This document shows positions 35,948 to 51,573 of a DNA stretch of 64,000 bases, piece after piece. The notes below the pieces were generated by a model that made no database searches, was not told the DNA's origin, and was given only the letters and a program-made list of their open reading frames with translations. The stretch lies in assembly GCA_041690395.1 (NCBI GenBank), contig JAWLHJ010000003.1, positions 1-64,000 on the forward strand, given 5' to 3'. Origin of the DNA: Longimicrobiales bacterium (GTDB taxonomy: Bacteria; Gemmatimonadota; Gemmatimonadetes; Longimicrobiales; Gaopeijiaceae). Every line of letters begins with the position of its first letter. Position 1 is the stretch's first letter. Position numbers and translations under genes: made by a program.

Positions 35948-37212
35948 CACGGGCTGGGCGTTTCGCCGTGCTCCTGGCCGGGCTCGCTCTCCTGGGCGGC
36001 GCCCGGGCCGCCCCCGCTCCGGGTCAGACCCCCGCGCCTCCCTCGGCCGGCGGTGAGCCAGGGTCGGAGCTCCGCGTCTGGCTGATCACGATCGGACCCG
36101 GCGACGCCATCTGGGAGCGCTTCGGGCACAACGCGATCCGTCTGCTCGACACGAGTACCGGCTACGACGCGTCGTACAACTGGGGCATCTTCGATTTCCA
36201 GCAGGAGGATTTCATTCCGCGTTTCCTGCGCGGCGAGATGCTGTACATGATGGCGCCCTTCGCCAGCGAGCCCATGATCGACATGTACCGGGCGGCGGGA
36301 CGGGAGGTGATCGCCCAGGAGCTGGCGCTGACGCCCGCACAGAAGCTCGAGTTGCGCGACTTCGCGGAGCGGAACGCGCTGCCCGGAAACCGTGAGTACT
36401 TCTACGACTACTTCCTGGACAACTGCTCGACGCGGGTTCGCGACCTGCTGGACCGGGTACTGGGTGGCGCCCTTTTCGCGCGCTTCGGCACGGAGCCGAC
36501 GGGGACGTCTTACCGCTATCATACGCGCCGCCTCACCCAGCCCGACCGGCCACTGTACACGGGTATGGACATCCTGCTGGGCAGCCCCGGTGATCAGCCG
36601 ATCACCGTGTGGGCCGAGATGTTCCTGCCCATGACGGTCCGTGACGCCATCCGCGACTTCAGCGTGGACGACGGCGAGGGCGGCACCCGACCCCTCGTGC
36701 TGTCCGAAGAGCTCCTGGCCGAGGCGCGGGTCGCCGACGAGCCCGAACGGGCGCCGACCTGGTGGTACTGGTATCTGCTCGCCGGGCTGCTCGGCGGGGG
36801 GGCGTTCGCGTTCCTCGGGCGTCGGGCCGCGGGCGGCTCGGCACGGGCCCGCTGGGCGTTCGCCGGATTCGGGGGACTCTGGGGCGCCCTGGCGGGCATC
36901 GCCGGTCTCATCCTGGTCGCGGTCCTCTTCACGGACCACCAGTTCATGACGTGGAACGAGAACCTCTTCCTGCTCTCGCCCCTGTCGCTCGCTCTGGCTC
37001 CCCTCGTGCCCCTGGCCGCGATGCGTCCCTCGGTGCGGACGTGGGCCGTGCGCGTGGCGGGAGCCGTGGTGGCGCTCGCGGTGATCGGCCTGGTGATCGG
37101 CCTGCTGCCCTTCGCCGTCCAGCGGAACGCGTTCGAGATCGCCCTCTTCCTCCCGCTCCACGTCGGGCTGTGGCTGGGAGTCAGCGCACTGGGTTCTTCA
37201 GCGACCGGTTGA
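35944..37212 (+). CDS. DUF4105 / Lnb-like membrane protein (putative lipoprotein N-acyltransferase)
   Basis: FGHNAIR, YNWGIFDF, YFYDYFLDNCSTRVRD, then 4-5 C-terminal TMs; TTG start overlaps the upstream stop. Confidence 0.7.
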   Translation: MTRAGRFAVLLAGLALLGGARAAPAPGQTPAPPSAGGEPGSELRVWLITIGPGDAIWERFGHNAIRLLDTSTGYDASYNWGIFDFQQEDFIPRFLRGEMLYMMAPFASEPMIDMYRAAGREVIAQELALTPAQKLELRDFAERNALPGNREYFYDYFLDNCSTRVRDLLDRVLGGALFARFGTEPTGTSYRYHTRRLTQPDRPLYTGMDILLGSPGDQPITVWAEMFLPMTVRDAIRDFSVDDGEGGTRPLVLSEELLAEARVADEPERAPTWWYWYLLAGLLGGGAFAFLGRRAAGGSARARWAFAGFGGLWGALAGIAGLILVAVLFTDHQFMTWNENLFLLSPLSLALAPLVPLAAMRPSVRTWAVRVAGAVVALAVIGLVIGLLPFAVQRNAFEIALFLPLHVGLWLGVSALGSSATG

Positions 37213-37971
37213 GGGTGCGGGCCGATACGCCGTCCGGACGAGCCAGAGGACGTCGACGGCGAAGGAGTACGCGAGCAGCGTGAGCGCGAGACCGCATGCG
37301 CCGGCCACCAGCGACGGGGGGACCACCGGCGCGAGGGCCACGAGAAGGGCCGCCACCTGCACGACGCAGATCGCCTTGCGGCGGAAGCTCGGAGGCAGAT
37401 CTCCCGTCAGCGGCGTCCAGAGCCACCCGGCCAGGACGAACAGGTAGCGAACGAGTCCGATCCAGACGACCCAGAAGCCGAGCGGGGTGCTGGTCCACAC
37501 GAGCGCGGCGAGCACGAGGATCAGGAACGCGTCGAGCTCCATGTCGAAGCGGGCGCCGAAACGGGTCTCCGAGGCCGTCCGCCGCGCCACCGCGCCGTCC
37601 ACACCATCGAGTGCGAGCGCCACGAGTGCGAGCGCCACCGCGAGCCATGCGAGGGACCCTAGCGCGCTTCCGGGGGTCACCAGCAGAGCGGCGACGGGTA
37701 GCACCAGCGTGGCGCGCAACAAGGTGACGCGATTCGCCCAGCCGAGCCCGGGTGGCGGCAAGCGTCGGGGAGCGCCGGCAACGACGAGGGCGCTCAGCGC
37801 TGCGTATCCGAGAAGCACCGTCCACACGTACACGTCCGGGAGGTCGTGCCAGCGGGCGATGGCCACGGCGGCGGCGGCCGCAGGGACGGCCGCGACGGCG
37901 AGGTCACGGAAGCGGAATGGCCCGTCGGGACGCGTGGGAGCGGAGTGAGCGGATGGGGGCGGGGTACTCAA
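37198..37971 (-). CDS. CDP-alcohol phosphatidyltransferase family protein
   Basis: ANRVTLLR and signature DGVDGAVARR...FGARFDMELD; multi-TM. Start uncertain (TTG 37971). Confidence 0.88.
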   Translation of the reverse strand: MSTPPPSAHSAPTRPDGPFRFRDLAVAAVPAAAAAVAIARWHDLPDVYVWTVLLGYAALSALVVAGAPRRLPPPGLGWANRVTLLRATLVLPVAALLVTPGSALGSLAWLAVALALVALALDGVDGAVARRTASETRFGARFDMELDAFLILVLAALVWTSTPLGFWVVWIGLVRYLFVLAGWLWTPLTGDLPPSFRRKAICVVQVAALLVALAPVVPPSLVAGACGLALTLLAYSFAVDVLWLVRTAYRPAPSTGR

Positions 37972-37996
37972 GGCCTGCGACGATGATTCGAGGACG

Positions 37997-38989
37997 ATGA
38001 CGGAAACGATCCATACCCGGCAATTCTGGATACGGTCGCCCGGGCAGGGCGCGGTCGAGGACCGAGCCATCGCGCCGCCGGGTGCGGGGGAGCTCCTCGT
38101 GGAAGCCTCCTACTCCGGCATCAGCCGCGGCACGGAGGCCCTCGTGTTCAACGGGGCCGTGCCCGAGTCCCAACACGATGCCATGCGTGCGCCCTTCCAG
38201 GAGGGCTCGTTCCCCGGGCCCGTGAAATACGGCTACAGCAGCGTCGGGAGGGTCGCGCGCGCGGCCGACGCCCCCGAGCTCGAGGGACGCTCCGTCTTCT
38301 GCCTGTTTCCGCACCAGGACCGCTACGTCGTCCCGGTGGACGCCGTCGTGCCGTTGCCCGAGGGACTCCCGGAGGGGCGCGCGGTGCTCGGCGCGAACAT
38401 GGAGACGGCGCTCAACGTGGTATGGGACGCGGGGGTCGGACCGGGCGACCGTGCGCTGGTCGTCGGCGGCGGCGTGGTCGGCCTGCTCGTCGCCTGGATC
38501 GCCCGGGGGATCCCGGGGAGCGATGTCCTGATCGTCGACGTGGATCCGTCGCGGGCGGAGGTGGCCGAGGCGCTGGGCGTCTCCTTCGCCGGCTCCGTGC
38601 CCGCGGGCTTCGACGCCGACGTGGTCGTGCACGCCAGCGGCTCGCCGGAAGGAGCCGCCGCGGCTCTTGGCGGGGCGGGTGTCGAGGGGCGGGTCGTCGA
38701 GGCGAGCTGGTTCGGCGACCGGAGCGTGGGCCTGCCGCTCGGCGAGGCGTTCCACGCCCGCAGGATCACGCTTCGGAGCAGCCAGGTCGGGCGGATTCCG
38801 CCGGAGCGGGCGCCGCGCTGGACCCACCGCCGCCGGATCGAGAAGGCATTGGAGCTGCTGCGCGCTCCGGTGCTCGACCGGCTCGTGACCGGAGAGAGCC
38901 CGTTCGACGAGCTTCCAGACACCCTCCGTCGGCTCAGCGACGACCCGGCGGGAGCCCTCTGCCACCGCATCCGATATCGCCCGGGCTGA
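37997..38989 (+). CDS. MDR-superfamily (zinc-binding alcohol dehydrogenase-like) oxidoreductase
   Basis: SGISRGTE, KYGYSSVG, PHQ, NMETALN, Rossmann GGGVVG, SSQVG. Confidence 0.85.
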   Translation: MTETIHTRQFWIRSPGQGAVEDRAIAPPGAGELLVEASYSGISRGTEALVFNGAVPESQHDAMRAPFQEGSFPGPVKYGYSSVGRVARAADAPELEGRSVFCLFPHQDRYVVPVDAVVPLPEGLPEGRAVLGANMETALNVVWDAGVGPGDRALVVGGGVVGLLVAWIARGIPGSDVLIVDVDPSRAEVAEALGVSFAGSVPAGFDADVVVHASGSPEGAAAALGGAGVEGRVVEASWFGDRSVGLPLGEAFHARRITLRSSQVGRIPPERAPRWTHRRRIEKALELLRAPVLDRLVTGESPFDELPDTLRRLSDDPAGALCHRIRYRPG

Positions 38990-39030: not shown

Positions 39031-39429
39031 GTGTATAGCCTGACAGTCCGAGACCACTTCATGATCGCCCACAGCTTCGCGGGCGAGATCTTCGGCCCGG
39101 CCCAGCGCCTCCACGGCGCCACCTATGTCGTGGACGCGTCCTTCCGACGCGGCGATCTCGACGCGGACGGCCTCGTGGTCGACATCGGGAGGGCCCGGGA
39201 GGTGCTGCGCGAAATCCTCAGCGAGCTCGATTACCGCAACCTCGACGAGGTCGAAGCGTTCGAGGGCGAGAACACGACCACCGAGTTCCTGGCTCGCGAG
39301 GTCTTCGACCGGATCGCGAGAGCCCTGCGGGATGGAGCGATGGGCCCGGGTGGGCGTGGCGTCCAGACCGTGGAGGTGACCCTCAAGGAGTCGCACATCG
39401 CCTGGGCGAGCTACGAGGGCGCGGTGTGA
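39031..39429 (+). CDS. 6-pyruvoyl-tetrahydropterin synthase / QueD-like T-fold protein (atypical)
   Basis: RDHFMIAHSF, FGPAQRLHGATY, LDYRNLD, NTTTEFLA, ESHIAWA; GAGGAAG before the GTG start. Confidence 0.88.
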   Translation: MYSLTVRDHFMIAHSFAGEIFGPAQRLHGATYVVDASFRRGDLDADGLVVDIGRAREVLREILSELDYRNLDEVEAFEGENTTTEFLAREVFDRIARALRDGAMGPGGRGVQTVEVTLKESHIAWASYEGAV

Positions 39430-40526
39430 CCTCACGGCGTATCCACTTCGTGGTCCCCGGAGCCCTCGACCAGCGGACCGGCGGGTATCTCTACGACGCC
39501 CGCATGGTGGCCGAGATGAGGGCCGTCGGTCGGGATGTCGTCGTGCACGAGCTCGACGGAGCCTTTCCGGCCGCGGACGAGGTGGCGCGTGGAAGCATGG
39601 GGGCGGCGCTGGAGCGGGTCGGCGACGACGAGCTGGTCGTCGTGGACGGCCTCGCCGGCGGCGGACTCCCGGAGGAGCTGGGCCGCCACGCTCGCCGCGT
39701 CCGGCTGGTGGGGCTCGTCCACCACCCGCTCGCCGACGAAACGGGGCTGTCCGAGGCGGAGGCGGCCCGCCTGGCGGCGTCCGAGCGGTCGGCCCTGGCG
39801 GTGTGCCGCGGGGTCGTGGTCACCAGCCGCTTCACCGCCCGGAGACTCGGCGCCTACGGGGTGGCGGCGCGGCGCATCCGGGTGGCCGTCCCGGGGACCC
39901 GTCCCGCTGCGCCCGCGTCGGGCCCCGAGGCCGGAGCCCCGCCGCGGCTTCTGTGCGTGGGCTCCCTGACGCGGAGGAAGGGACATCTGGTCCTGGTCGA
40001 GGCGCTGGCCACGGTCGCGGAGCTGGATTGGAACTGCTCGCTGGCGGGCAGCGAGACGCTCGACCCGGATCATGCGCGTGAGGTGCATCGCGCCGTCACC
40101 GAACACGGGTTGGAGGACCGGGTGTCCTTCCTCGGAGAGCTCGACGAGCCCTCCCTCGACGACGCCTACGCGGGGGCGAGTCTGTTCGTCCTGGCGTCGT
40201 ACTACGAGGGGTACGGCATGGCCCTCACTGAAGCGATCGCACGGGGGCTGCCGGTGCTCAGCACTACGGGCGGAGCGATCCCGTACACGGTGCCCGCGGA
40301 GGCGGGCGTGCTCGTCGAGCCTGGCGACCCGGGGGCACTCGCCCGAGCGCTCCGCGGCCTTCTGGTCGAGCCGGATGGCACGCTAGCCACGCTTCGGGAG
40401 GGGGCCCTCCGTGTGGCGGCCGACCTCCCCGACTGGCTGGCCGCCGGGGCTACATTCCTCTCGGCGGTCGAGGAGGCCGGCCACGGAGTCCCTCTCGCCG
40501 TTTCCGGGACGGGCACGCCGTCATGA
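39426..40526 (+). CDS. Glycosyltransferase family 4
   Basis: TGGYLYD, HHPL, RRKG, EX7E motif YEGYGMALTE. Confidence 0.9.
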   Translation: MTSRRIHFVVPGALDQRTGGYLYDARMVAEMRAVGRDVVVHELDGAFPAADEVARGSMGAALERVGDDELVVVDGLAGGGLPEELGRHARRVRLVGLVHHPLADETGLSEAEAARLAASERSALAVCRGVVVTSRFTARRLGAYGVAARRIRVAVPGTRPAAPASGPEAGAPPRLLCVGSLTRRKGHLVLVEALATVAELDWNCSLAGSETLDPDHAREVHRAVTEHGLEDRVSFLGELDEPSLDDAYAGASLFVLASYYEGYGMALTEAIARGLPVLSTTGGAIPYTVPAEAGVLVEPGDPGALARALRGLLVEPDGTLATLREGALRVAADLPDWLAAGATFLSAVEEAGHGVPLAVSGTGTPS

Positions 40527-41353
40527 GCGACGCTCCCGAACGCCGAGACGCGTTTTCCGCCGGCTGGCTCGCGCTGCGGGAGCCCGTCGACCACCGGACG
40601 CGCGCGGAAGCGTTGCTCGCGCCTCTGGCGACGGAGTGGCGGAGGCGGGGGTGGAGACGCGTAGTCGACCTGGGCTCCGGGACCGGATCGAACGCCCGCT
40701 ACCTGGCGCCACGCCTGCCGGGTCCCCAGCGGTGGGTGCTCGTCGACCACGACGCGGACCTGCTCGAGGGGGCCACCGTTCCGTCGTCGGTCGACGACGT
40801 GCGGCGGATCGTGGGCGATCTCGCCGCGGAGGGGCTCGAGGCCGTCCATGAAGCCGATCTGGTCACCGGTTCCGCTCTCCTGGATCTCGTGTCCGGGGCG
40901 TGGCTGGAGCAGCTTGTCGACGCCTGCCTGTCCGCGGGGGCGGGTGCGCTGTTCACCACCATCTACGACGGCACGGTGCATTGGAGCGACGAGCGCCCGG
41001 ACGACGCACGGGTGAAGGAGTTGGTGAACGCTCATCAGGCCCGAGACAAGGGCCTCGGTGGCGCACTCGGCCCGAGGGCGGCTCGCGCGGCTCGTGACCG
41101 GTTCGAGGTCGCGGGCTACCGGACCTGGCTGACGCCGAGCCCGTGGAGCCTCGGTACGGGCGACGCACAGTTGGCGCGCCTGCTAGTCGAAGGTTGGGTC
41201 GATGCGGCGGTCGAGCAGAGCCCCGCCGACGCGGATCGACTCAGGGCGTGGGGCCGTGCGAGGTGCGCGGACGTGGACGGTGGAGTCGCCCGGGTCGTCG
41301 TGGGACATCTGGACCTGCTCGCCCTCCCTCCGGCGGAGCACGAGGACCGGTGA
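40523..41353 (+). CDS. Class I SAM-dependent methyltransferase-like protein
   Basis: WLALREPVD, VDLGSGTGSN, SALLDLVS, NAHQ, GHLDL. Confidence 0.82.
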   Translation: MSDAPERRDAFSAGWLALREPVDHRTRAEALLAPLATEWRRRGWRRVVDLGSGTGSNARYLAPRLPGPQRWVLVDHDADLLEGATVPSSVDDVRRIVGDLAAEGLEAVHEADLVTGSALLDLVSGAWLEQLVDACLSAGAGALFTTIYDGTVHWSDERPDDARVKELVNAHQARDKGLGGALGPRAARAARDRFEVAGYRTWLTPSPWSLGTGDAQLARLLVEGWVDAAVEQSPADADRLRAWGRARCADVDGGVARVVVGHLDLLALPPAEHEDR

Positions 41354-42342
41354 AGCGCCGGGCGCGCCGCTGGCTCCGGGGCCTCGCGGGACCCATCATT
41401 CTCCTGGGTGTCGCCCTGACGGTCGACGTCCGAGCGGTGTCGGAGCGCCTCGCCGCCCTCGAGGCGCCCTGGGTGCTAGCCGCGCTTGCGGTCGGCGTCG
41501 GGCAGACGCTCCTCTCCGCCTGGCGCTGGAGGTACACCGCCGGCCGCCTCGGACTCACGATCCCATTTGCGCTGGCGCTCCGCGAGTACTACCGCGCGAT
41601 CTTCCTGAATCAGGTGCTGCCCGGCGGCGTCCTGGGCGACGCCGACCGCGCCTGGCGCCATTCGGGACGAGCTCCCGAGGCGCGCGGGCCGGCGGTTCGA
41701 GCGGTGGTCCTGGAGCGGCTCTCGGGCCAGGTGGTGATGGCCGCGGTGGCGTCGATCTCCTTCGGCTTCATCGCGCTGCGCGCCGGAACCGGGGCCCTCG
41801 GTTGGTGGGTCGCGTCGCTGGGCGTGGCCGCCGTTGCCGGCGTCGCCGTGGCGGTATCGGTCCGAGCGCCGCGCAGCTCCTCGCCCGCTTCGGTGACGGC
41901 CGCCCTCAGACGTGACGCCCGGGCCGCGCTCTTCTCCGGTGAGGCCGTGTACGTCCAACTCGCGACCTCGACGGTCATCATCGCATCGTACGTCGCGGCC
42001 TACCTGCTCGCGGCGCGGGCGGTGGGCGTCGAGACGCCCCTCGTCGCGGTGGCGCCTCTGGTCGCACCGGTCCTGCTGGCGATGCTGCTTCCCGTCTCGG
42101 TCGGGGGGTGGGGCGTGCGTGAGTCCGCCGCGGCCGCGATCTGGAGCGTCGCGGGCCTGGGCGCCTCGGACGGCGTGGCGATCTCCGTCGCGTACGGCCT
42201 GATTGTGCTCGTCGGCACGGTGCCGGGAGGCTACGCGCTCCTGTTCGGTGGAACACCCGTCGCGGCCGAAGCGGTCGAGGGGCTGCCGGAGCCCGCCCGT
42301 AGGTCCAGGTCGAAGAGGATGTCGGCGCCCAGCGCGAAGTGA
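41350..42342 (+). CDS. Lysylphosphatidylglycerol synthase TM-domain (UPF0104, flippase-like) protein
   Basis: AWRW, FLNQVLPGGVLGD, VVLERLSG, LPVSVGGWGVRE; multi-TM. Confidence 0.85.
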   Translation: MKRRARRWLRGLAGPIILLGVALTVDVRAVSERLAALEAPWVLAALAVGVGQTLLSAWRWRYTAGRLGLTIPFALALREYYRAIFLNQVLPGGVLGDADRAWRHSGRAPEARGPAVRAVVLERLSGQVVMAAVASISFGFIALRAGTGALGWWVASLGVAAVAGVAVAVSVRAPRSSSPASVTAALRRDARAALFSGEAVYVQLATSTVIIASYVAAYLLAARAVGVETPLVAVAPLVAPVLLAMLLPVSVGGWGVRESAAAAIWSVAGLGASDGVAISVAYGLIVLVGTVPGGYALLFGGTPVAAEAVEGLPEPARRSRSKRMSAPSAK

Positions 42343-43136
42343 CGGCAAGCGGGCCGGAGCGCGGCGTCGAGCTCGTCGATGACCGGCAGGCTCAGCCCCT
42401 GGCGCCCGGATCCGATGATCATGGGCGCGACCGTGACGTGCAGCCGATCGAGCGCGCCGGCCTCCAGGAAGCGGGATACGGTGATGCCACCGCCTTCGAC
42501 AAGGATCCGCCGGTAGCCACGCCCGCGCAGCAGCGCAATGAGGGCTCCAGGAGGTACGGACCCGGCGCGCCCACGCTCTGGCGGCGCGATGACCTCCACG
42601 TGGCCGGGTAGACCCGCCTCCGGCGTACCGTCCCGGATCCAGAGCGTGGGCGCGTCGGCGTCGGTGAAGAGCGGCCCTTCCGGCGGGACGCGCCCGTTCG
42701 GATCGAGCACGATCCTGGTCGGATGCTCTCCTTCGACGAGGCGCACCGTCAGGCGCGGGGCGTCGGAGACGGCAGTCCCCGCGCCGACGATCACGGCGTC
42801 GACGAGGGCGCGCAGGCGGTGGAGTCTCACGATGTCCTCCGGGCCGGTCACGTAGTGGGACCGACCGGACTCCGTGGCCACCCGTCCGTCGAGGCTCTGC
42901 CCGATCTGGCCCACGACGTAGTCCGGGCGCGCCGCCAGCGGCAGATAGAGGTCCAGGATCGCTCGGGCCTCCGGGCCAGGAGGAGGCTGGGTGTGCCACC
43001 CCCCTTCGTCGTCGAGCACGAGGAGGTGGCCGGAGGCGTCGCGCACGCGCGCGGGCGGCGCCGACCCGTCCGACACGGCGCCGGCCACCGCGCGCACCAG
43101 CGACCAGGCCGCGGCCGCGTCGAGTGAGGCGTTCAC
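42231..43136 (-). CDS. RibD C-terminal (pyrimidine reductase/DHFR-like) domain protein, no deaminase domain
   Basis: GQSLDGRVAT, HRLRALVDAVIVGAGT, PRLTVR, LVEGGG, APMIIG. Confidence 0.88.
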   Translation of the reverse strand: MNASLDAAAAWSLVRAVAGAVSDGSAPPARVRDASGHLLVLDDEGGWHTQPPPGPEARAILDLYLPLAARPDYVVGQIGQSLDGRVATESGRSHYVTGPEDIVRLHRLRALVDAVIVGAGTAVSDAPRLTVRLVEGEHPTRIVLDPNGRVPPEGPLFTDADAPTLWIRDGTPEAGLPGHVEVIAPPERGRAGSVPPGALIALLRGRGYRRILVEGGGITVSRFLEAGALDRLHVTVAPMIIGSGRQGLSLPVIDELDAALRPACRHFALGADILFDLDLRAGSGSPSTASAATGVPPNRSA

Positions 43137-43954
43137 GACCGGTCCGTCAGGCGATCCAGCGGGAAACGGGCCGCGTCGGCGAGCACGCGCGCGAGGTACG
43201 CGCCGTATCCTTCGACGAGGCGGGCGCCCATCTCCTTCGTGGCCAGGTGCGCGTTGCCGGTCACGCCGTCGGGGTTGAGATCCTGCGCGGTCCAAGCGAA
43301 CGCGGCGGCTCCCTCGGGCAGCAGGACGTCGAGGGTCTCCTCGAGCTTCGCGCCGAGCGACGGGAAGTCCCGAACGGTCTCCTTCCGCACCAGATCGGGA
43401 CGGAGGTGCATCATCATGGCCGTCTCGACCGCACCGCCGTGGAGCCCGTGACGCCATTCGGCTTCCGGCAGCTCGACGCCGTCCGGCCGGGGAAACCGGA
43501 AGACGTGGGCCTTCACCACCAGGAGCCCGTGATCCGTCCGCGCCCGGAGCGCGGCCCCGTCGACGACATGCTTGTTGCCCCCGTGCGCGTTCAGGATCAC
43601 CAGCCGGTGGATCCCCTCGGCCGCGACCGCGGCGGCCAGCGAGCCGAGTACGCGCCCGAGGGTCTCCGCGTCCAGCGACAGGGTGCCCCCGAGCCCCACG
43701 TGCTCCTCGCTCGAGCCGAGGGAGAGGTGCGGCAGGACGACGACGGGCACCTTGGCCGCCGTGGACTCCAGGGCCCGCTCCAGGATGCCTGCCGCGATCA
43801 GGAGGTCGGTCGACACCGGGAGGTGCGGCCCGTGCTGCTCGATCGCGCCGAGGGGCAGGACGGCGACCGGATCGTGTCCGGCGGCGGCCGCGAGCTCCGG
43901 GCGGGTCGCGGTCTCCCAGGAGAGCGGGAAGACGGGGGCGGGCGCTCGGGTCAT
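43133..43954 (-). CDS. Creatininase-family amidohydrolase (FAPy deformylase-like)
   Basis: LPLGAIEQHGPHLPVSTD, SEEH, NAHGGN, HGGAVET. Confidence 0.9.
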   Translation of the reverse strand: MTRAPAPVFPLSWETATRPELAAAAGHDPVAVLPLGAIEQHGPHLPVSTDLLIAAGILERALESTAAKVPVVVLPHLSLGSSEEHVGLGGTLSLDAETLGRVLGSLAAAVAAEGIHRLVILNAHGGNKHVVDGAALRARTDHGLLVVKAHVFRFPRPDGVELPEAEWRHGLHGGAVETAMMMHLRPDLVRKETVRDFPSLGAKLEETLDVLLPEGAAAFAWTAQDLNPDGVTGNAHLATKEMGARLVEGYGAYLARVLADAARFPLDRLTDRS

Positions 43955-44700
43955 GGGACGGACTCCTCGATCAAGCGGGCGTACAGGTCGCCGAACGGGA
44001 GATCGTCCGCGCCTCCTTGGAGCCACGCGCGCGCCTCACCGGCGGTGAGCCATCCGTCGAAGACGAAGTTGCGGTCCTCTCCGGCCACGGCATTGTACTC
44101 GTAACGCCCCAGCGTCTCCAGCCGTGCGACGCACGCCTCGGCCACCTCGAGCCCTCCCCGGACGAACTCCACCGAGAGCGCCGACACGGCCCGGCTGAGG
44201 CCCTCGAGCGCTTCGGCCTCGTAGCCCTCGATGTCCAGCTTGCAGAAATCCGGGAGGCCGAAACGGTCCACGAGCGCGTCCAGCGTCGTCATGGGGACCT
44301 CGATCTCGTCCTCCCAGCGCACGCCCTCGAACCCCGGATTGCGCTCGGGCATCCGGTCGCGCCACAGCCGTGAGACCGTCGATACGGTGGGGGTGCGCCG
44401 ACTCACCGCCAGGCGGGCGGTCCCCTCCTTCGGGCCGACGGCCTCCTCGACGATCTCGACGCCCGAGCGGCGCCCCACCAGCCGGCGGAGCCACGTGGCG
44501 ACCCGCGGCTGCGGCTCGAGCGCGATCACCCGGGCTCCGAGGGCCGAGAACGCCGCGGTTCGGTCGCCCAGGTGGGCGCCGACGTCGAACACGAGGGAGC
44601 CCCGGCCGACGAACGGCCGGTACAGGCGGCGGAGGGCCGGCTGTCTCCCCGGGCGCCAGTAGACGAGGAGGGAGCGCAGGAGCCCGAAGATCTCACCCAC
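43951..44700 (-). CDS. FkbM-family methyltransferase
   Basis: FDVGAHLG, ALEPQP, TTLDAL, KLDIEGYE. Confidence 0.88.
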   Translation of the reverse strand: MGEIFGLLRSLLVYWRPGRQPALRRLYRPFVGRGSLVFDVGAHLGDRTAAFSALGARVIALEPQPRVATWLRRLVGRRSGVEIVEEAVGPKEGTARLAVSRRTPTVSTVSRLWRDRMPERNPGFEGVRWEDEIEVPMTTLDALVDRFGLPDFCKLDIEGYEAEALEGLSRAVSALSVEFVRGGLEVAEACVARLETLGRYEYNAVAGEDRNFVFDGWLTAGEARAWLQGGADDLPFGDLYARLIEESVP

Positions 44701-46393
44701 CGGGACCGGCCTGCGCGAGGTCCTTGGGTCCGCTGAAGGTCGGCACGAACCAGGGCCGGAAGCGGTCCATGCGAGGGGCATCTCCCTCTGGGTCCGGGAA
44801 CGCCCCGGGCACGAAGCCCCACTCGAGGAACGGCGCCACGAGGTCCGGGTCACCGCTGACGACGTGCACGGGGACGGTCCGTGGCGCGCCGTCCCCGGTC
44901 ACCAGCGGCGCGGGCTGGTGATCGCCGAGAATGATCAGCAGCATGTCCTCGCCGACGTAGCGCTCGGCGTAGGACGTCGCCGAGTGCACGGCGTAGTCGA
45001 TGGACAGCGCGAAGTGCTCCCGCACGCGGTCGGCGTTCCGCCAGAGGTCCTCGGGGCGCTCACCGGCATCGCGCCAGGGCTCGAACACGGCGCCGTTTCC
45101 GATGCCTTCCCAGTCTTCGAGCACCGGCAGGATGGGGGTCCACGGCGCGTGGCTGCTGATCAGCCCCAGCTCCGCGAAGAGCGGACGCTCGTCGTCGCGC
45201 CCGCGGATGGTGTGCTCGAGGAACGACCAGGTGAACTGGTCCGGCATGGTCACCCAGTTCAGCGGGGGGCCGGCATACCCGATGGCCTCGAAGTCGTAGA
45301 TCTCGTCGTAGCCGAACCGCTCACCCTCGGGCCAGGCGAGCGTGATGGCCGGCATCAATGCCGCCGTGCGGTATCCCGCGGCGCGGAAGTCGTCGACGAG
45401 CGTCTGGCGGCGGCTCGCGAGCAGGAGGTCGTAGCGCATCTGGTTGTGGAGCCAGAGGCCGCTCAGCACGGAGCCGTGGCCGAGCCAGGACTGCCCGCCC
45501 TGGCTCGGCGCCACCATGCTGCCGCTCGCGAGCGTCAGTCCCGCTTCGGCCATGCGACGCTCCATCTCCTCGAGTCGCGGCCGCAGGACGGATGCGTAGC
45601 GGGGATCGTCCAACACCACGCTCCCGTACGACTCGACGAACGCGAGCACGACGTCCCGGCCGCCGAGTCGGTCGAACAGGCCCGGGAGCTCCGCGTAGCT
45701 GTCGGTCGTCGCCGAGAGCTCGGCCTCGAAGGCCTCTCGCTCCTCATTGAGCGCCGACAGGAAGCGGGATTGCTCCAGCACGAGACGGACCCCCGGGAAC
45801 CCGAGGCCGCCCGCTCCGCCCGCGGCACGCGCTCCGAACATCATCATACCGGTCACCACGACCGCGATCACGGCATTCCGCCGGCTCCATAGAATGGGGC
45901 GGACGCCGCGCGGCGGGGCCAGCAGGTGGCCGAGGACCGCCACGGTGGCGAGGACGGCGCTCACTGCGAGCACCCCGGCGAGAGCCGCCGCCACCCCTCC
46001 CAACGTTCCCGTCAGGAGGTTGAAGACGGCGCTCAGGAGCTGGACGTCGAGATACAGGTTGAGCGGGCGGGACAGGCTCATGCGGGTCGAGGCGTCGCCG
46101 AGACCGATCAGCCCGGTCGCAACGACCAGCGTGGCGGCGAGCAGGGCGGCCGCCAGGCTCCACCAGGCACGGGGAAGCGCGGCGAACACGAGGGCGAGGA
46201 GCCAGGCCTCGACCGCGATCCAATGGAACGGAACCATGCCGGGGGCGCCCCATTGCGGGGCGAGCAGCACGGCATTGACAACCAGAAACGCCAGGACGAG
46301 GCTCAGGAGTCTTCCGGACGCGGTCGACGGCCACGAGGCCAGCGCCTTCGCGACGGAGGCCGGTCTCCCGACGGTCGCCGAATCGGAGCTCAT
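44693..46393 (-). CDS. Membrane-anchored alkaline-phosphatase-superfamily (sulfatase/LtaS/OpgB-like) protein
   Basis: About 5 N-terminal TMs, then FVESYG, GQSWLGH, SSHAPW, GDHQP. Confidence 0.72.
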   Translation of the reverse strand: MSSDSATVGRPASVAKALASWPSTASGRLLSLVLAFLVVNAVLLAPQWGAPGMVPFHWIAVEAWLLALVFAALPRAWWSLAAALLAATLVVATGLIGLGDASTRMSLSRPLNLYLDVQLLSAVFNLLTGTLGGVAAALAGVLAVSAVLATVAVLGHLLAPPRGVRPILWSRRNAVIAVVVTGMMMFGARAAGGAGGLGFPGVRLVLEQSRFLSALNEEREAFEAELSATTDSYAELPGLFDRLGGRDVVLAFVESYGSVVLDDPRYASVLRPRLEEMERRMAEAGLTLASGSMVAPSQGGQSWLGHGSVLSGLWLHNQMRYDLLLASRRQTLVDDFRAAGYRTAALMPAITLAWPEGERFGYDEIYDFEAIGYAGPPLNWVTMPDQFTWSFLEHTIRGRDDERPLFAELGLISSHAPWTPILPVLEDWEGIGNGAVFEPWRDAGERPEDLWRNADRVREHFALSIDYAVHSATSYAERYVGEDMLLIILGDHQPAPLVTGDGAPRTVPVHVVSGDPDLVAPFLEWGFVPGAFPDPEGDAPRMDRFRPWFVPTFSGPKDLAQAGPGG

Positions 46394-48128: not shown

Positions 48129-51071
48129 TTGATCGCTACGGCTCAATTACCTATCCGAAGCTCGCCCCCTGCCGCGCGGCTCGATACGCCGTGGCTCGGG
48201 CTGCGCCGTGCCCTGTTTTTCGCTCTCGTCCTCGCCACCACGGTGTACGGCGTGTCGATGATGGCCGCGTTGGTGTCGGGTGGAGGCACGACCCGGCTCG
48301 AGCTGCTGATCCTCGTTTTGTTCGCGCCCACGTTCGCGTGGATCTCCGTCGCATTCTGGAATGCCGTGGTGGGGTTCATCCTCCGGGCGTTCGGACGCGA
48401 CCCGCTGACGCTCGAGCGCATCGACGCCCCGGGTGGCCCGGCCCGGTTGGCGCCGCTCAGTTCGAGAACGGCGCTGGTCGTGCCGGCCCGGAACGAAGAC
48501 GCCTACGCGGTCGTTCGGCGAATCGAGGCGATGTTGGGGTCCCTCGAGAGGGCAGGTCATGCCGGCGCCTTCGACGTGCACCTCCTGAGCGACACCGACG
48601 ATCCGGAGCGGATCCCGGCGGAAGATGGGGCGTGGGCGGGTCTGGCCGGGCGCTACTCGGGCGCGGCCGGGCTCCATTACCGACGCCGAGCGCACAACGA
48701 AGGTCGGAAAGCCGGCAACATCGCGGAGTTCCTCGGCCGCGCGGGCGCGGGGTACGAGTACATGGTGGTGTTGGACGCCGACTCCGTCATGTCGGCCGAC
48801 ACCCTCGTCCGGCTCGTGCGTACGATGGACGCGAACCCGACGGCCGGCCTGGTGCAGACGGTTCCGCTTCCGGGCCCGCAGACGACGCGCTTCGGGCGCT
48901 TCGTCGAGCTTGCCGCCGGCCTGTACGGACCGATGCTCGCGGCCGGGCAGAGCTTCTGGCAAGGCGACGCCGCCAACTACTGGGGGCACAACGCGATCGT
49001 GCGTGTCGAGCCCTTCGTGCGGCACTGTCGGCTGCCGGTGCTGTCCGGCTCGCCGCCCCTCGGCGGTGAGATCCTGTCGCACGACTTCGTGGAGGCCGCA
49101 TTGCTGCGTCGGGCCGGTTGGGGGGTATACCTCCTGGCCGGGGCCGGAGGGAGCTGGGAGGACGTCCCCGCGAACCTGATCGACTACGCGCGGCGGGACC
49201 GCCGTTGGTCCCAGGGAAGCCTGCAACACCTGAAGCTGCTCGCGCTCGGGGGCCTTCACCCCATCAGCCGGCTGCACTTCCTGCTGGGCGCCATGGGATA
49301 TGTGTCGTCCCTCCTGTGGCTCCTGCTTCTGTTGGCGAGCACGGCGTACGTGGCCGGCGTCGCGCCGCTCGCGGATCCCGTGCTGGACGGGGTCGCGGGC
49401 ATGGGCTCGTGGACCCTCCTCCAGCCTTTACCCTCGCTGCTGGCGGTGACGGCGGCGATCCTCTTTCTGCCCAAGGGACTCGGGTTGCTGCTCGCGCTCC
49501 GGCAGCGGGAGCGGTACGGGGGGGCGGCGCGGTTGATCGGTGCCGGTGTCGCGGAAGCAGGCTTCGCGGTCGTGGTGGCGCCGATCATGATGATGTTCCA
49601 CGCGAAGTTCGTGTTGGAAGTCATGGTAGGACATTCGGTTGCCTGGACGACGCAGCTCCGTGACGGCACGTCGGTGCCGTGGGGCGATGCGACCCGGGCG
49701 GTCGGATGGATCGGCGCCGGGGGACTCCTCTGGGCCGCGGGAACGTGGTCCCTGAGTCCTCTGTTCTTCGCGTGGATGGCCCCGATTTTCATCGGGCTGC
49801 TCGCCGCGATTCCTCTCGTCCGATGGACCTCTCGTCCGTCGGTCGGTGTTTTCGACTCCGGTCCGATGCAAGACCGGGTTCCATTTTCTCCGGTATCCGG
49901 GACCGCCGTAGAGCGGGGAGGTTCGGTGAACGATATGTACGAGGCAGAGCGTGGGCTCTTCGAGCTGAGACGGCGTCGGGCGCTGCTCGTCACGCACGCG
50001 GCGAACGGCGACGGTACGGCGGGGGGCGACGCGCTGGTCGCGTCCGCCGAAGGATTGGGTGACGAGACCTTGGCGTCCCTGCGCCGCCTCGCCGATGGGC
50101 CGCTCCACCTGGTCGTCACGCCGCACCGGGCCCGTGCCCTCGGCATCCAACTCAGCCCCGGCCCGCTGGCGTTGCGGCTCCCGGCCGACGCCGGTCCGGG
50201 TGACGTGCTCCACCTGTGCAGCGAGCGCGGATCGACTCCGCCACGCGGTATGACCGTTCGACCGGCCACGGCGGCCGAGGCGCAGGGTCTGGCGTTGGCC
50301 CGGCTCGCCCAGCTCCTCCCGGCTGTGGTGGCGGGAAGTGTCTCGTCGACCCCGCGTGCGGAGCTGACGGAGGTACTGGCCGCCCGCCGGATCCTGCAGG
50401 TCGACTCGAAGCGCATCCGTGCCGCGCTCGAAGCGCCGAGGATCTCCGTCTCGCAGGTCAGTGAAGCCCCGGTTCCGCTGCAGGATGCCGAGGACGCCCG
50501 CTTCGTCCTGTTCCGGGAGGATCATGCTCTCCTGGAGCACGTCGCGATCATGATCGGGCGTCGCGAAGCGTGGCCGGACCCGGTGCCGGTGCGGCTGCAC
50601 TCGGCGTGCCTCACGGGCGACCTGTTCGGGAGCCTGAAATGCGACTGCGGCGAGCAGCTTCGCGGGAGCCTTCGGCACTTCCAGGAGCAGGGGGGCGGCG
50701 TGCTGCTCTATCTCCAGCAGGAAGGGAGGGGCATCGGGCTCGGAAACAAGCTGCGGGCCTACTCGCTCCAGGACGGAGGACTCGACACGGTGGACGCGGA
50801 CTGCACGCTCGGCTTCGGACCGGACGAGCGGACCTACGACGCCGCTCTCGACATGCTCCACCAACTCGGGATCGAGCGCGTGCAGCTGCTCACGAACAAC
50901 CCGGACAAGCTGAGGGCCGTGGAGCGGGGCGGGATCCAGGTCATGGATCGCATGCCCCTCCACGGGACGCTCAACCGGTACAATCTCCCGTACGTGAAGG
51001 CGAAGGTGCAGCGCGCCGGCCACTGGCTGGGCGACATGCTCTCCGGCGTGTCGGGGAACGGAAGTAGTTGA
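48129..51071 (+). CDS. opgH: Glucans biosynthesis glucosyltransferase OpgH (MdoH) fused in frame to a RibA-type GTP cyclohydrolase II with a degenerate RibB-like linker domain
   Basis: OpgH motifs RKAGNI, VLDADS, YWGHNAI, LSHDFVEA, RDRRWSQG plus TMs; no stop before RibA motifs RLHSACLTGDLFGSLKCDCG, EGRGIG, TNNPDK. Confidence 0.88.
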   Translation: MIATAQLPIRSSPPAARLDTPWLGLRRALFFALVLATTVYGVSMMAALVSGGGTTRLELLILVLFAPTFAWISVAFWNAVVGFILRAFGRDPLTLERIDAPGGPARLAPLSSRTALVVPARNEDAYAVVRRIEAMLGSLERAGHAGAFDVHLLSDTDDPERIPAEDGAWAGLAGRYSGAAGLHYRRRAHNEGRKAGNIAEFLGRAGAGYEYMVVLDADSVMSADTLVRLVRTMDANPTAGLVQTVPLPGPQTTRFGRFVELAAGLYGPMLAAGQSFWQGDAANYWGHNAIVRVEPFVRHCRLPVLSGSPPLGGEILSHDFVEAALLRRAGWGVYLLAGAGGSWEDVPANLIDYARRDRRWSQGSLQHLKLLALGGLHPISRLHFLLGAMGYVSSLLWLLLLLASTAYVAGVAPLADPVLDGVAGMGSWTLLQPLPSLLAVTAAILFLPKGLGLLLALRQRERYGGAARLIGAGVAEAGFAVVVAPIMMMFHAKFVLEVMVGHSVAWTTQLRDGTSVPWGDATRAVGWIGAGGLLWAAGTWSLSPLFFAWMAPIFIGLLAAIPLVRWTSRPSVGVFDSGPMQDRVPFSPVSGTAVERGGSVNDMYEAERGLFELRRRRALLVTHAANGDGTAGGDALVASAEGLGDETLASLRRLADGPLHLVVTPHRARALGIQLSPGPLALRLPADAGPGDVLHLCSERGSTPPRGMTVRPATAAEAQGLALARLAQLLPAVVAGSVSSTPRAELTEVLAARRILQVDSKRIRAALEAPRISVSQVSEAPVPLQDAEDARFVLFREDHALLEHVAIMIGRREAWPDPVPVRLHSACLTGDLFGSLKCDCGEQLRGSLRHFQEQGGGVLLYLQQEGRGIGLGNKLRAYSLQDGGLDTVDADCTLGFGPDERTYDAALDMLHQLGIERVQLLTNNPDKLRAVERGGIQVMDRMPLHGTLNRYNLPYVKAKVQRAGHWLGDMLSGVSGNGSS
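49935..51071 (+). CDS. ribA: GTP cyclohydrolase II moiety (possible independent internal start)
   Basis: In-frame GTG 49926 / ATG 49935 preceded by GGGGAGG; Zn-binding C-X10-C-X-C and catalytic motifs intact. Confidence 0.7.
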   Translation: MYEAERGLFELRRRRALLVTHAANGDGTAGGDALVASAEGLGDETLASLRRLADGPLHLVVTPHRARALGIQLSPGPLALRLPADAGPGDVLHLCSERGSTPPRGMTVRPATAAEAQGLALARLAQLLPAVVAGSVSSTPRAELTEVLAARRILQVDSKRIRAALEAPRISVSQVSEAPVPLQDAEDARFVLFREDHALLEHVAIMIGRREAWPDPVPVRLHSACLTGDLFGSLKCDCGEQLRGSLRHFQEQGGGVLLYLQQEGRGIGLGNKLRAYSLQDGGLDTVDADCTLGFGPDERTYDAALDMLHQLGIERVQLLTNNPDKLRAVERGGIQVMDRMPLHGTLNRYNLPYVKAKVQRAGHWLGDMLSGVSGNGSS

Positions 51072-51090: not shown

Positions 51091-51573
51091 GTGGCGGCCC
51101 TGGCGATGGCCGCCTGCTCCGGTCCGCCTGAGGTCGAGCGCGATCCCGCTCCGCTCCTGCAGACCTCGGCGGTGCGGTACACGTTCGAGCGGCACGACTT
51201 CGGCTATTCGACGACGATTCCGTTCACCTACAGGAACGAGACCGACGTCGACGTGCTCGTGGACCACTGTGACGGCGACGTCCGCCCGCTCCTCCAGATC
51301 CGCCGCGGCGACCGGTGGGTCGACCAGTGGCACCCGTTCATGGACGGCTGCTCGAGCCCACCCCTCCGTATCGCCCCCGGCGAGGTCTACTCCGACACGT
51401 TACGCGTGATCGGGGCCCCGCCGGGATCGAACGTCACGCCGGCCTTCGTGTTCGAAGACGTGGAAGGCGTGTATCGTTTGTATTGGTTCCAGGCGCGCCT
51501 TTCCGACTCGGACTCGGTCGCCACCGCACTGCCGTGGCGCGTCTCGAACCCGTTCGTGATCGAGCTCCCTTGA
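51091..51573 (+). CDS. Hypothetical lipoprotein
   Basis: Lipobox-like MAAC; beta-rich with a Cys pair. Start uncertain. Confidence 0.6.
   Translation: MAALAMAACSGPPEVERDPAPLLQTSAVRYTFERHDFGYSTTIPFTYRNETDVDVLVDHCDGDVRPLLQIRRGDRWVDQWHPFMDGCSSPPLRIAPGEVYSDTLRVIGAPPGSNVTPAFVFEDVEGVYRLYWFQARLSDSDSVATALPWRVSNPFVIELP

Follow-up and report, generated by a model that had tools for sequence, protein, structure and literature searches.

In the first 64,000 nucleotides of contig JAWLHJ010000003.1 from a bacterium of the order Longimicrobiales (assembly GCA_041690395.1; the whole stretch is referred to here as the window), a single open reading frame was found to encode OpgH (MdoH), the membrane glucosyltransferase of osmoregulated periplasmic glucan (OPG) synthesis, fused to the GTP cyclohydrolase II RibA. 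That the fusion is real, old and specific to its lineage may be taken as virtually certain. Its RibA moiety, designated RibA2, belongs to an adjoining orphan PTPS-IV gene cluster and not to riboflavin synthesis, and the fusion is a sign that OPG synthesis and this orphan pathway are linked across phyla.

The frame runs uninterrupted on the forward strand from 48129 to 51071 (980 aa, TTG start, TGA stop), and its composition agrees with the original prediction, made from the DNA letters, of an OpgH core and membrane region, a P/S/G-rich linker, a degenerate RibB-like segment and an intact RibA domain in one stop-free frame. The OpgH moiety (48129..49832, residues 1-568) comprises a GT2 core with the motifs DADS, SHDFVE and RDRRW together with membrane helices; residues 22-573 matched NF003958 with 672 bits against a cut-off of 419, and NF003962 scored 551 bits against the moiety (cut-off 328). 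A linker of 34 codons (49833..49934), reading SRPSVG...GSVND as originally given, leads into RibA2 (49935..51071, residues 603-980). In the latter, GTP_cyclohydro2 (PF00925) was matched at residues 778-943 with 180.6 bits (cut-off 23.3) and NF001591 (RibA) scored 219.6 (cut-off 148). The best RibA model was NF006456, the PRK08815 type, which shares the two-domain architecture and spanned residues 604-967; RibA2 differs from this type in scoring 324.6 bits, below the cut-off of 464, in the substitutions E53 to A and N118 to D, and in being fused to a membrane glucosyltransferase. Segment 603-770 is RibB-like and degenerate: its profile recovered the genome's own RibB domain at 4.9e-10, PF00926 was matched by 7 of 60 RibA2 members (best E 0.004), and the DEDRENEGD-type acidic catalytic loop of RibB (DHBP synthase) was absent from the segment.

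With all catalytic motifs intact, both halves of the protein look active. OpgH residues D216/D218, S317-E322 and R356-W360 were conserved in 99 of 99 fused proteins (V321 in 98 of 99), and the motifs DADS, SHDFxE and RDRRW align to BcsA. RibA residues C827, C838, C840 and Y878 were likewise present in all 99, and R901 in 98, with a gap in the remaining one; these align to E. coli C54, C65, C67, Y105 and R128, and represent the three zinc cysteines and the equivalents of Tyr105 and Arg128. The two substitutions relative to E. coli GTP cyclohydrolase II, which were invariant in 60 of 60 RibA2 sequences, could alter the RibA2 product; E53 to A lies at 50601-50603 of the window (RibA2 residue 224) and N118 to D at 50799-50801 (residue 289). 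Of the eight membrane helices expected of an OpgH, hydropathy analysis of the moiety resolved six clear segments, the last at residues 546-564, and the junction comes after it. Residue 574 corresponds to position 718 of the 855-position OpgH model, and E. coli OpgH has a C-terminus that is cytoplasmic from residue 702 (PMC3723540; the literature is cited here from excerpts). From these points, and by homology to E. coli OpgH, we infer that the RibA moiety lies on the cytoplasmic side, where the original prediction had required it to be. A complex prediction with OpgH and RibA2 as separate chains scored 0.00 and was not used as evidence.

A protein search for both domains, limited to lengths of 539-1715 aa and counted over the 120 matches listed, returned at least 99 full-length fused proteins, assigned, where named, to Gemmatimonadota or Longimicrobiales; the carriers are bacteria from soils and sediments. 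Among 41 related genomes, the fused frame was present in five of the six others of the genus and in several of the family. Among 401 genomes from the order, a single family accounted for all matches at E 1e-62 (77 of 256, with 0 of 71 and 0 of 73 in other families), and in a sample of the phylum the OpgH profile was matched by 4 of 47 genomes of that family and by 0 of 253 others. Where opgH directly precedes ribA2, which was the case in 38 genomes, the two were fused in 29 and split in nine. Furthermore, the junction was crossed without gaps by contigs from three other sequencing runs of three studies (X3, 49306-50600; X2, 49805-49990; X13, 49638-50600), one of them from an RNA library, which does not show transcription. 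Long open frames occur often in DNA of high G+C content. Even so, faulty assembly, or an opgH stop codon lost only very recently, both entertained by the original prediction, is a negligible prospect, being ruled out by these gap-free contigs, the 29 fused genomes and the 99 fused relatives. As the databases name the fused proteins only MdoH or membrane glycosyltransferase, the OpgH-RibA fusion is invisible in annotation, and no paper on such a fusion or on a link to OPGs was found among the literature matches listed, which did not cover subscription journals or supplements.

Directly upstream of the fusion and its opgG lie ten cluster genes (eleven counting opgG), which the original prediction had missed while seeing the fusion itself. 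The opgG gene (MdoG, PF04349; 46430..48127, +) ends 1 nt before the TTG of the fusion. Beyond it follow genes for a 'sulfatase'-like membrane protein (44693..46393, -), modelled as a phospho-head-group transferase of the LtaS/GacH/EptA/BcsG type, an FkbM-family methyltransferase (43951..44700, -), a creatininase-fold amidohydrolase that is a candidate formamidase or deaminase (43133..43954, -), a RibD C-terminal-type (RibD_C) pyrimidine reductase (PF01872; 42231..43136, -), a flippase-like LPG_synthase_TM membrane protein (41350..42342, +), a class I S-adenosylmethionine (SAM) methyltransferase (40523..41353, +), a GT4 glycosyltransferase (39426..40526, +), PTPS-IV (39031..39429, +; FGPAQ motif, homologue of SCO6650, PDB 3D7J, E 2e-49), a zinc-binding alcohol dehydrogenase (37997..38989, +) and a CDP-alcohol phosphatidyltransferase (37198..38070, -; the longest open reading frame, whose true start is probably further in). 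PF00925 and PF01872 have been described as the conserved neighbours of PTPS-IV (PMC5445326), which was confirmed in the window and in the gene orders of relatives, and for PTPS-IV the excerpt of PMC5041015 offers nothing beyond an unpublished F420 role. Where relatives lack opgGH, their ribA2 is located directly opposite the sulfatase-like gene, and in 15 others ribA2 has shifted position inside the cluster, with opgGH remaining next to the sulfatase-like gene.

Several further observations concern the cluster and its surroundings. Many Longimicrobiales clusters carry a cytochrome b561 gene in the gap between the transferase and FkbM genes (L044, L056, L064, L066); it is absent from the window's cluster, and a homologue lies on contig C2. 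Two cluster copies were seen in one genome bin in G009 (L067, L068) and G332 (L160, L161). On the 3' side of the fusion, a 160-aa lipoprotein-like frame with a LAALAMAAC-type signal (51091-51573, +) is conserved in the genus and gave no Pfam or NCBIfam match. Between 46000 and 52000 no sigma-70-like promoter was found, and terminator-like matches (4 against 2.5 expected) showed no excess over chance.

A role for the fused RibA as a surplus riboflavin enzyme, serving flavin synthesis or secretion, is very improbable. A complete housekeeping ribD-ribE-ribBA-ribH operon is located elsewhere in the genome (C3:481-484 kb), neither ribE nor ribH is among the genes of the window's cluster, and RibA2 has remained alongside PTPS-IV, GT4 and lipid genes despite repeated rearrangement. 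These observations outweigh the retention of canonical GTP cyclohydrolase II residues, the similar RibA that Rhodobacterales importer genomes (described below) carry away from the cluster, and the use of RibD_C and creatininase-type formamidases in riboflavin synthesis elsewhere (PMC9478397). RibA2 is likely to be the entry enzyme of the PTPS-IV cluster. Four Acidobacteriota loci (L197, L198, L199 and L200) contain opgGH, PTPS-IV and RibD_C, with no ribA2 and no creatininase gene within the 20 kb covered, an absence suggesting that the pathway there can be supplied by the housekeeping RibA.

The association of opgGH with the cluster extends well beyond the fused lineage. A scan of species genomes yielded 69 OpgH loci, a set chosen by OpgH similarity, from Gemmatimonadota, Acidobacteriota, Woeseiaceae and many Halomonadaceae; kin are not independent in this or any other count. 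Cluster genes were present at 67 of these loci and the sulfatase-like transferase gene at 63, and at 63 of the 69, from three phyla, opgG lay directly beside the transferase gene. The arrangement of opgGH inside the cluster was also seen in Halomonadaceae, Acidobacteriota and some Rhodobacterales. When genomes were drawn evenly, 14 of 400 from Pseudomonadota and 10 of 200 from Acidobacteriota had the transferase gene; opgG or opgH lay within about 10 kb of it in 13 of the combined 24. The original prediction had proposed a Rosetta-stone link tethering GTP ring-opening to the glucan synthase. The fusion is indeed genuine and conserved, but because opgGH is tied to the cluster across several phyla, with or without the fusion, the link is to the PTPS-IV cluster; that the tether itself is important is likely.

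A second fusion involving OpgH was found in 98 protein clusters (P0122-P0219), assigned to Rhodobacteraceae where named and annotated only as MdoH, in which the passenger is a SAM methyltransferase. On a plasmid of Roseicitreum antarcticum (L177:5258-7888, -) this fusion lies inside a lipid/transferase module, and free homologues of the fused methyltransferase occur in six Longimicrobiales cluster loci; no internal Met was present in the 18 junctions inspected. Both fusions thus place a soluble cluster enzyme on the tail of OpgH in the same lipid/transferase module, and they differ in the passenger and in that an importer replaces the GTP enzymes in one annotated Rhodobacteraceae locus. RibA was also found fused to a CDP-alcohol phosphatidyltransferase (P0107, P0108). 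Other RibA fusions involved GTP cyclohydrolase I (P0106, P0111-P0113, P0116-P0121), an L,D-transpeptidase domain (P0110) and a GT4 glycosyltransferase (P0114).

As unfused relatives of this OpgH subfamily end 26-101 aa after residue 568 and the fused linkers span 34-77 codons, the linker is considered the remnant of the ordinary cytoplasmic tail of OpgH. The tail had originally been thought shortened, which holds against the 704-position model only and not against these unfused relatives. The 28 fused linkers that could be measured had 12 different lengths between 102 and 231 nt, all multiples of three. Among six same-genus genomes, the linker changed at 0.31/0.33/0.36 per codon position, as compared with 0.26/0.17/0.45 and 0.20/0.10/0.43 in the flanking coding DNA. 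Shuffled linkers were stop-free in only 31% of cases and the other two linker frames contained stops in 19 and 13 of 28, figures to be read with fused rows being stop-free by definition. Continuity of the linker appears to be kept while its sequence is free.

The SD-like (Shine-Dalgarno-like) GGGGAGG/GGAGGT and the in-frame GTG 49926 and ATG 49935 (49915..49937, +; GGGGAGG at 49915-49921) are present as originally claimed and form a retained internal start of RibA2. The internal RibA Met was retained in 96 of 99 fused proteins. When SD energy was calculated as pairing to the anti-SD of the genome's 16S, the median was -6.45 at 28 fused loci and -5.8 at 21 free ribA2 starts (p 0.56), as against a weaker -3.7 at 562 other internal Met codons. 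Given this Met retention and a pairing like that of free ribA2 starts, both the fusion and free RibA2 are likely to be made, in keeping with the possibility first raised.

The fusion probably arose by loss of the opgH stop from an ancestral order in which opgG, opgH and ribA2 were transcribed divergently from the transferase gene. By parsimony, the OpgH tree called for 6 changes and the RibA2 tree for 8, and approximately unbiased (AU) tests did not reject a single fused clade (p 0.158, 0.376 and 0.122), these being quick trees with near-identical Halomonas rows mostly left out; one origin with losses, or several origins, is possible. An open-frame scan had also indicated G199 and G322 as fused and long frames in G184 and G187, but direct translation shows stops, and they were not counted as fused.

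The 'sulfatase' encoded at 44693..46393 was modelled from a 72-row alignment with a pLDDT (predicted local distance difference test) of 90, as compared with 41 for a single-sequence fold. Its architecture, an N-terminal membrane domain with an extracytoplasmic alkaline-phosphatase-fold domain, matches LtaS/OpgB/EptA-type enzymes, and the top fold matches were GacH, LtaP/LtaS, EptC, MCR and BcsG (Z 17.5-19). The order E, S/T, H, DH of LtaS, GacH, EptA and BcsG is also shared, with E254, S302, H415 and D491-H492 invariant; the differences are that identity to these enzymes is 8-15% and that Ser occupies the presumed nucleophile position. Sequence searches against PDB and NCBIfam gave no match, nor did any of the 72 members match NCBIfam. 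On the strength of the model, the protein is a putative phospho-head-group transferase. In E. coli, OpgB and OpgE add lipid-derived head groups (phosphoglycerol, phosphoethanolamine) to OPG (PMC10514313; PMC3818809). As the transferase has its own CDP-alcohol transferase and flippase-like gene, a dedicated donor lipid is suggested.

In Rhodobacterales the lipid module consists of genes for the CDP-alcohol transferase, the transferase, the flippase-like protein, GT4 and cytochrome b561. The place of the GTP enzymes is taken by an ATP-binding cassette (ABC) importer of the NMT1/THI5 type at 7 of the 10 plasmid loci viewed and at 5 of the 24 loci sampled; PTPS-IV was not found in the five sampled importer genomes (positive control 3 of 3). 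The closest solved relative of the importer's binding protein is 3IX1 (E 4e-8), which binds an aminopyrimidine. The presence of the importer in place of the GTP enzymes, together with this relative, suggests a small heterocycle derived from GTP as the module's substrate, either made or imported. In Dinoroseobacter plasmid pDSHI05, opgGH lies within an import-version module. Import-version loci comprise L173:12039-20517, L176, L178-L180, L182 and L192-L196. A Qingshengfaniella plasmid (L181:7804-15718) combines the lipid module with a sugar-type ABC importer; GT4 is missing from the part read, as would fit the import of a compound that already bears its sugar.

Starting from the fusion, its conservation, the intact active sites, the gene order and the transferase fold, we tentatively favour a scheme, plausible if somewhat short of probable, in which a GTP-derived group is loaded onto a lipid, flipped and transferred onto the periplasmic glucan. 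RibA2, held by the tail of OpgH, would open GTP at the inner face of the membrane to the aminopyrimidine 2,5-diamino-6-ribosylamino-4(3H)-pyrimidinone 5'-phosphate (DARPP). RibA works as a dimer, and free RibA2 from the internal start could pair with tethered RibA2. The RibD_C protein, creatininase, zinc dehydrogenase, PTPS-IV and methyltransferases would convert DARPP to a pyrimidine- or pterin-type compound, to be glycosylated by GT4; the CDP-alcohol phosphotransferase would make a phosphatidyl derivative, the LPG_synthase_TM protein would flip it, and the LtaS/OpgB-like enzyme would place its phospho-head group on the OpgH/OpgG glucan, in the manner of OpgB and OpgE.

A number of points weigh against this scheme. 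No opg gene lay nearby at 11 of the 24 sampled transferase loci, and opg genes were nearby at only 2 of the 10 plasmid loci viewed. In 26 genomes of the family, a RibA2 match was obtained and no OpgH match; replacement of OpgH by a cyclic glucan synthase was considered for these, but the domain was detected in only 2 of 26. Since the cluster is kept in most of the 26 with no glucan synthase found, the glucan is not the sole acceptor and is at best one of them. The tether is dispensable, given the nine split forms among 38 adjacent-order genomes and 15 more genomes that keep opgH and ribA2 apart; the split G317 and G331 are nearly identical to the fused G252, and a low-G+C genus among the splits keeps the full OpgH tail motif seen in Halomonas. 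RibA2 would come in several steps ahead of any membrane step, such that channelling to OpgH would make little chemical sense. True sulfatases follow closely among the fold matches (Z 16-17), and lipid-loading, flipping and transfer onto the glucan we infer from genes and folds. Separately, the source genome contains a 2826-aa frame with a glycoamylase domain (G000:C3:550048-550650), consistent with a cyclic beta-1,2-glucan synthase, and may make two kinds of periplasmic glucan.

Fusion as tolerated operon compaction, whereby most RibA2 is made from its own start, read-through yields a product without a role and the tether is unselected, is an alternative that we consider unlikely, yet deserving of some weight. 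It would account for the retained Met and SD, for a linker that evolves like non-coding DNA, for the split forms, including close sisters of a fused genome, and for the separation of opgH and ribA2 in most phyla. It is harder to reconcile with 12 linker lengths that remain multiples of three down to about 55% identity and with the few frame breaks inside fused clades; by a rough count, and if this tally of events is fair, about eight in-frame length changes against one frame break would have a chance of about 0.001. The parallel OpgH-methyltransferase fusion, which has no internal Met in 18 junctions, also speaks against it. The fusion is probably kept, under weak selection, and the covalent tether itself likely matters, even though split forms exist.

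Equally doubtful, though deserving consideration, is that the cluster product goes to another acceptor (lipid, lipopolysaccharide or protein), or is redox-active and recycled by cytochrome b561, with OpgH a convenient anchor and opgGH travelling with the cluster, both serving in envelope, osmotic or desiccation stress. In 24 of the 26 family genomes the cluster persists with neither OpgH nor cyclic glucan synthase found, cytochrome b561 is in the cluster at 37 of 129 loci searched (some of them duplicates) and at 8 of 10 plasmid loci, general-stress genes (NepR/sigma, CsbD, OsmC) lie beside some plasmid copies, and the fold family of the transferase takes in lipid A and teichoic acid enzymes. 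However, opgG adjoins the transferase gene at 63 of the 69 OpgH loci, which is tighter than co-regulation needs, and two unrelated lineages each carry OpgH joined to a cluster enzyme. A bolder extension of the glucan-transfer scheme, which we hold to be speculative and unlikely, is a new class of lipid and OPG substituent whose head group would be a GTP-derived, glycosylated and possibly redox-active heterocycle, with the OpgH tail as a scaffold for enzymes of the pathway in two unrelated lineages. It is similarly speculative that cheaters would import the heterocycle by NMT1/THI5 and that the decorated glucan would act as a redox buffer in the periplasm, maintained in its reduced state by cytochrome b561.

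Of the known systems, OpgGH of E. coli shares the opgG-opgH order, the GT2 motifs, a C-terminus predicted here to be cytoplasmic and, nearby, a membrane transferase with the alkaline-phosphatase fold (PMC10514313, PMC3723540). It differs in that OpgH here carries a C-terminal GTP cyclohydrolase and the transferase is of a distinct family, accompanied by a CDP-alcohol transferase and a flippase-like gene of its own. SCO6650-SCO6655 of S. coelicolor has in common the FGPAQ PTPS-IV, GTP cyclohydrolase II, RibD_C, creatininase, dehydrogenase and glycosyltransferase (PDB 3D7J; PMC5445326, PMC5041015). Here, by contrast, these genes are joined to opgGH and the LtaS-like transferase, and RibA is fused to OpgH. 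RibA2 also retains a Tyr where E. coli has Y105, in which it differs from SCO6655, reported to have Met at this position and to stop at the formylated product.

To our knowledge, recognition of the PTPS-IV cluster dates back more than a decade, and no product has been assigned to it. For this orphan pathway the fusion directs attention to membrane lipids and periplasmic glucans, and makes it directly testable, with culturable hosts available for both the synthesis form (Halomonas/Vreelandella) and the import form (Dinoroseobacter or Paracoccus). For OPGs, the pathway could bring in a new kind of substituent chemistry.

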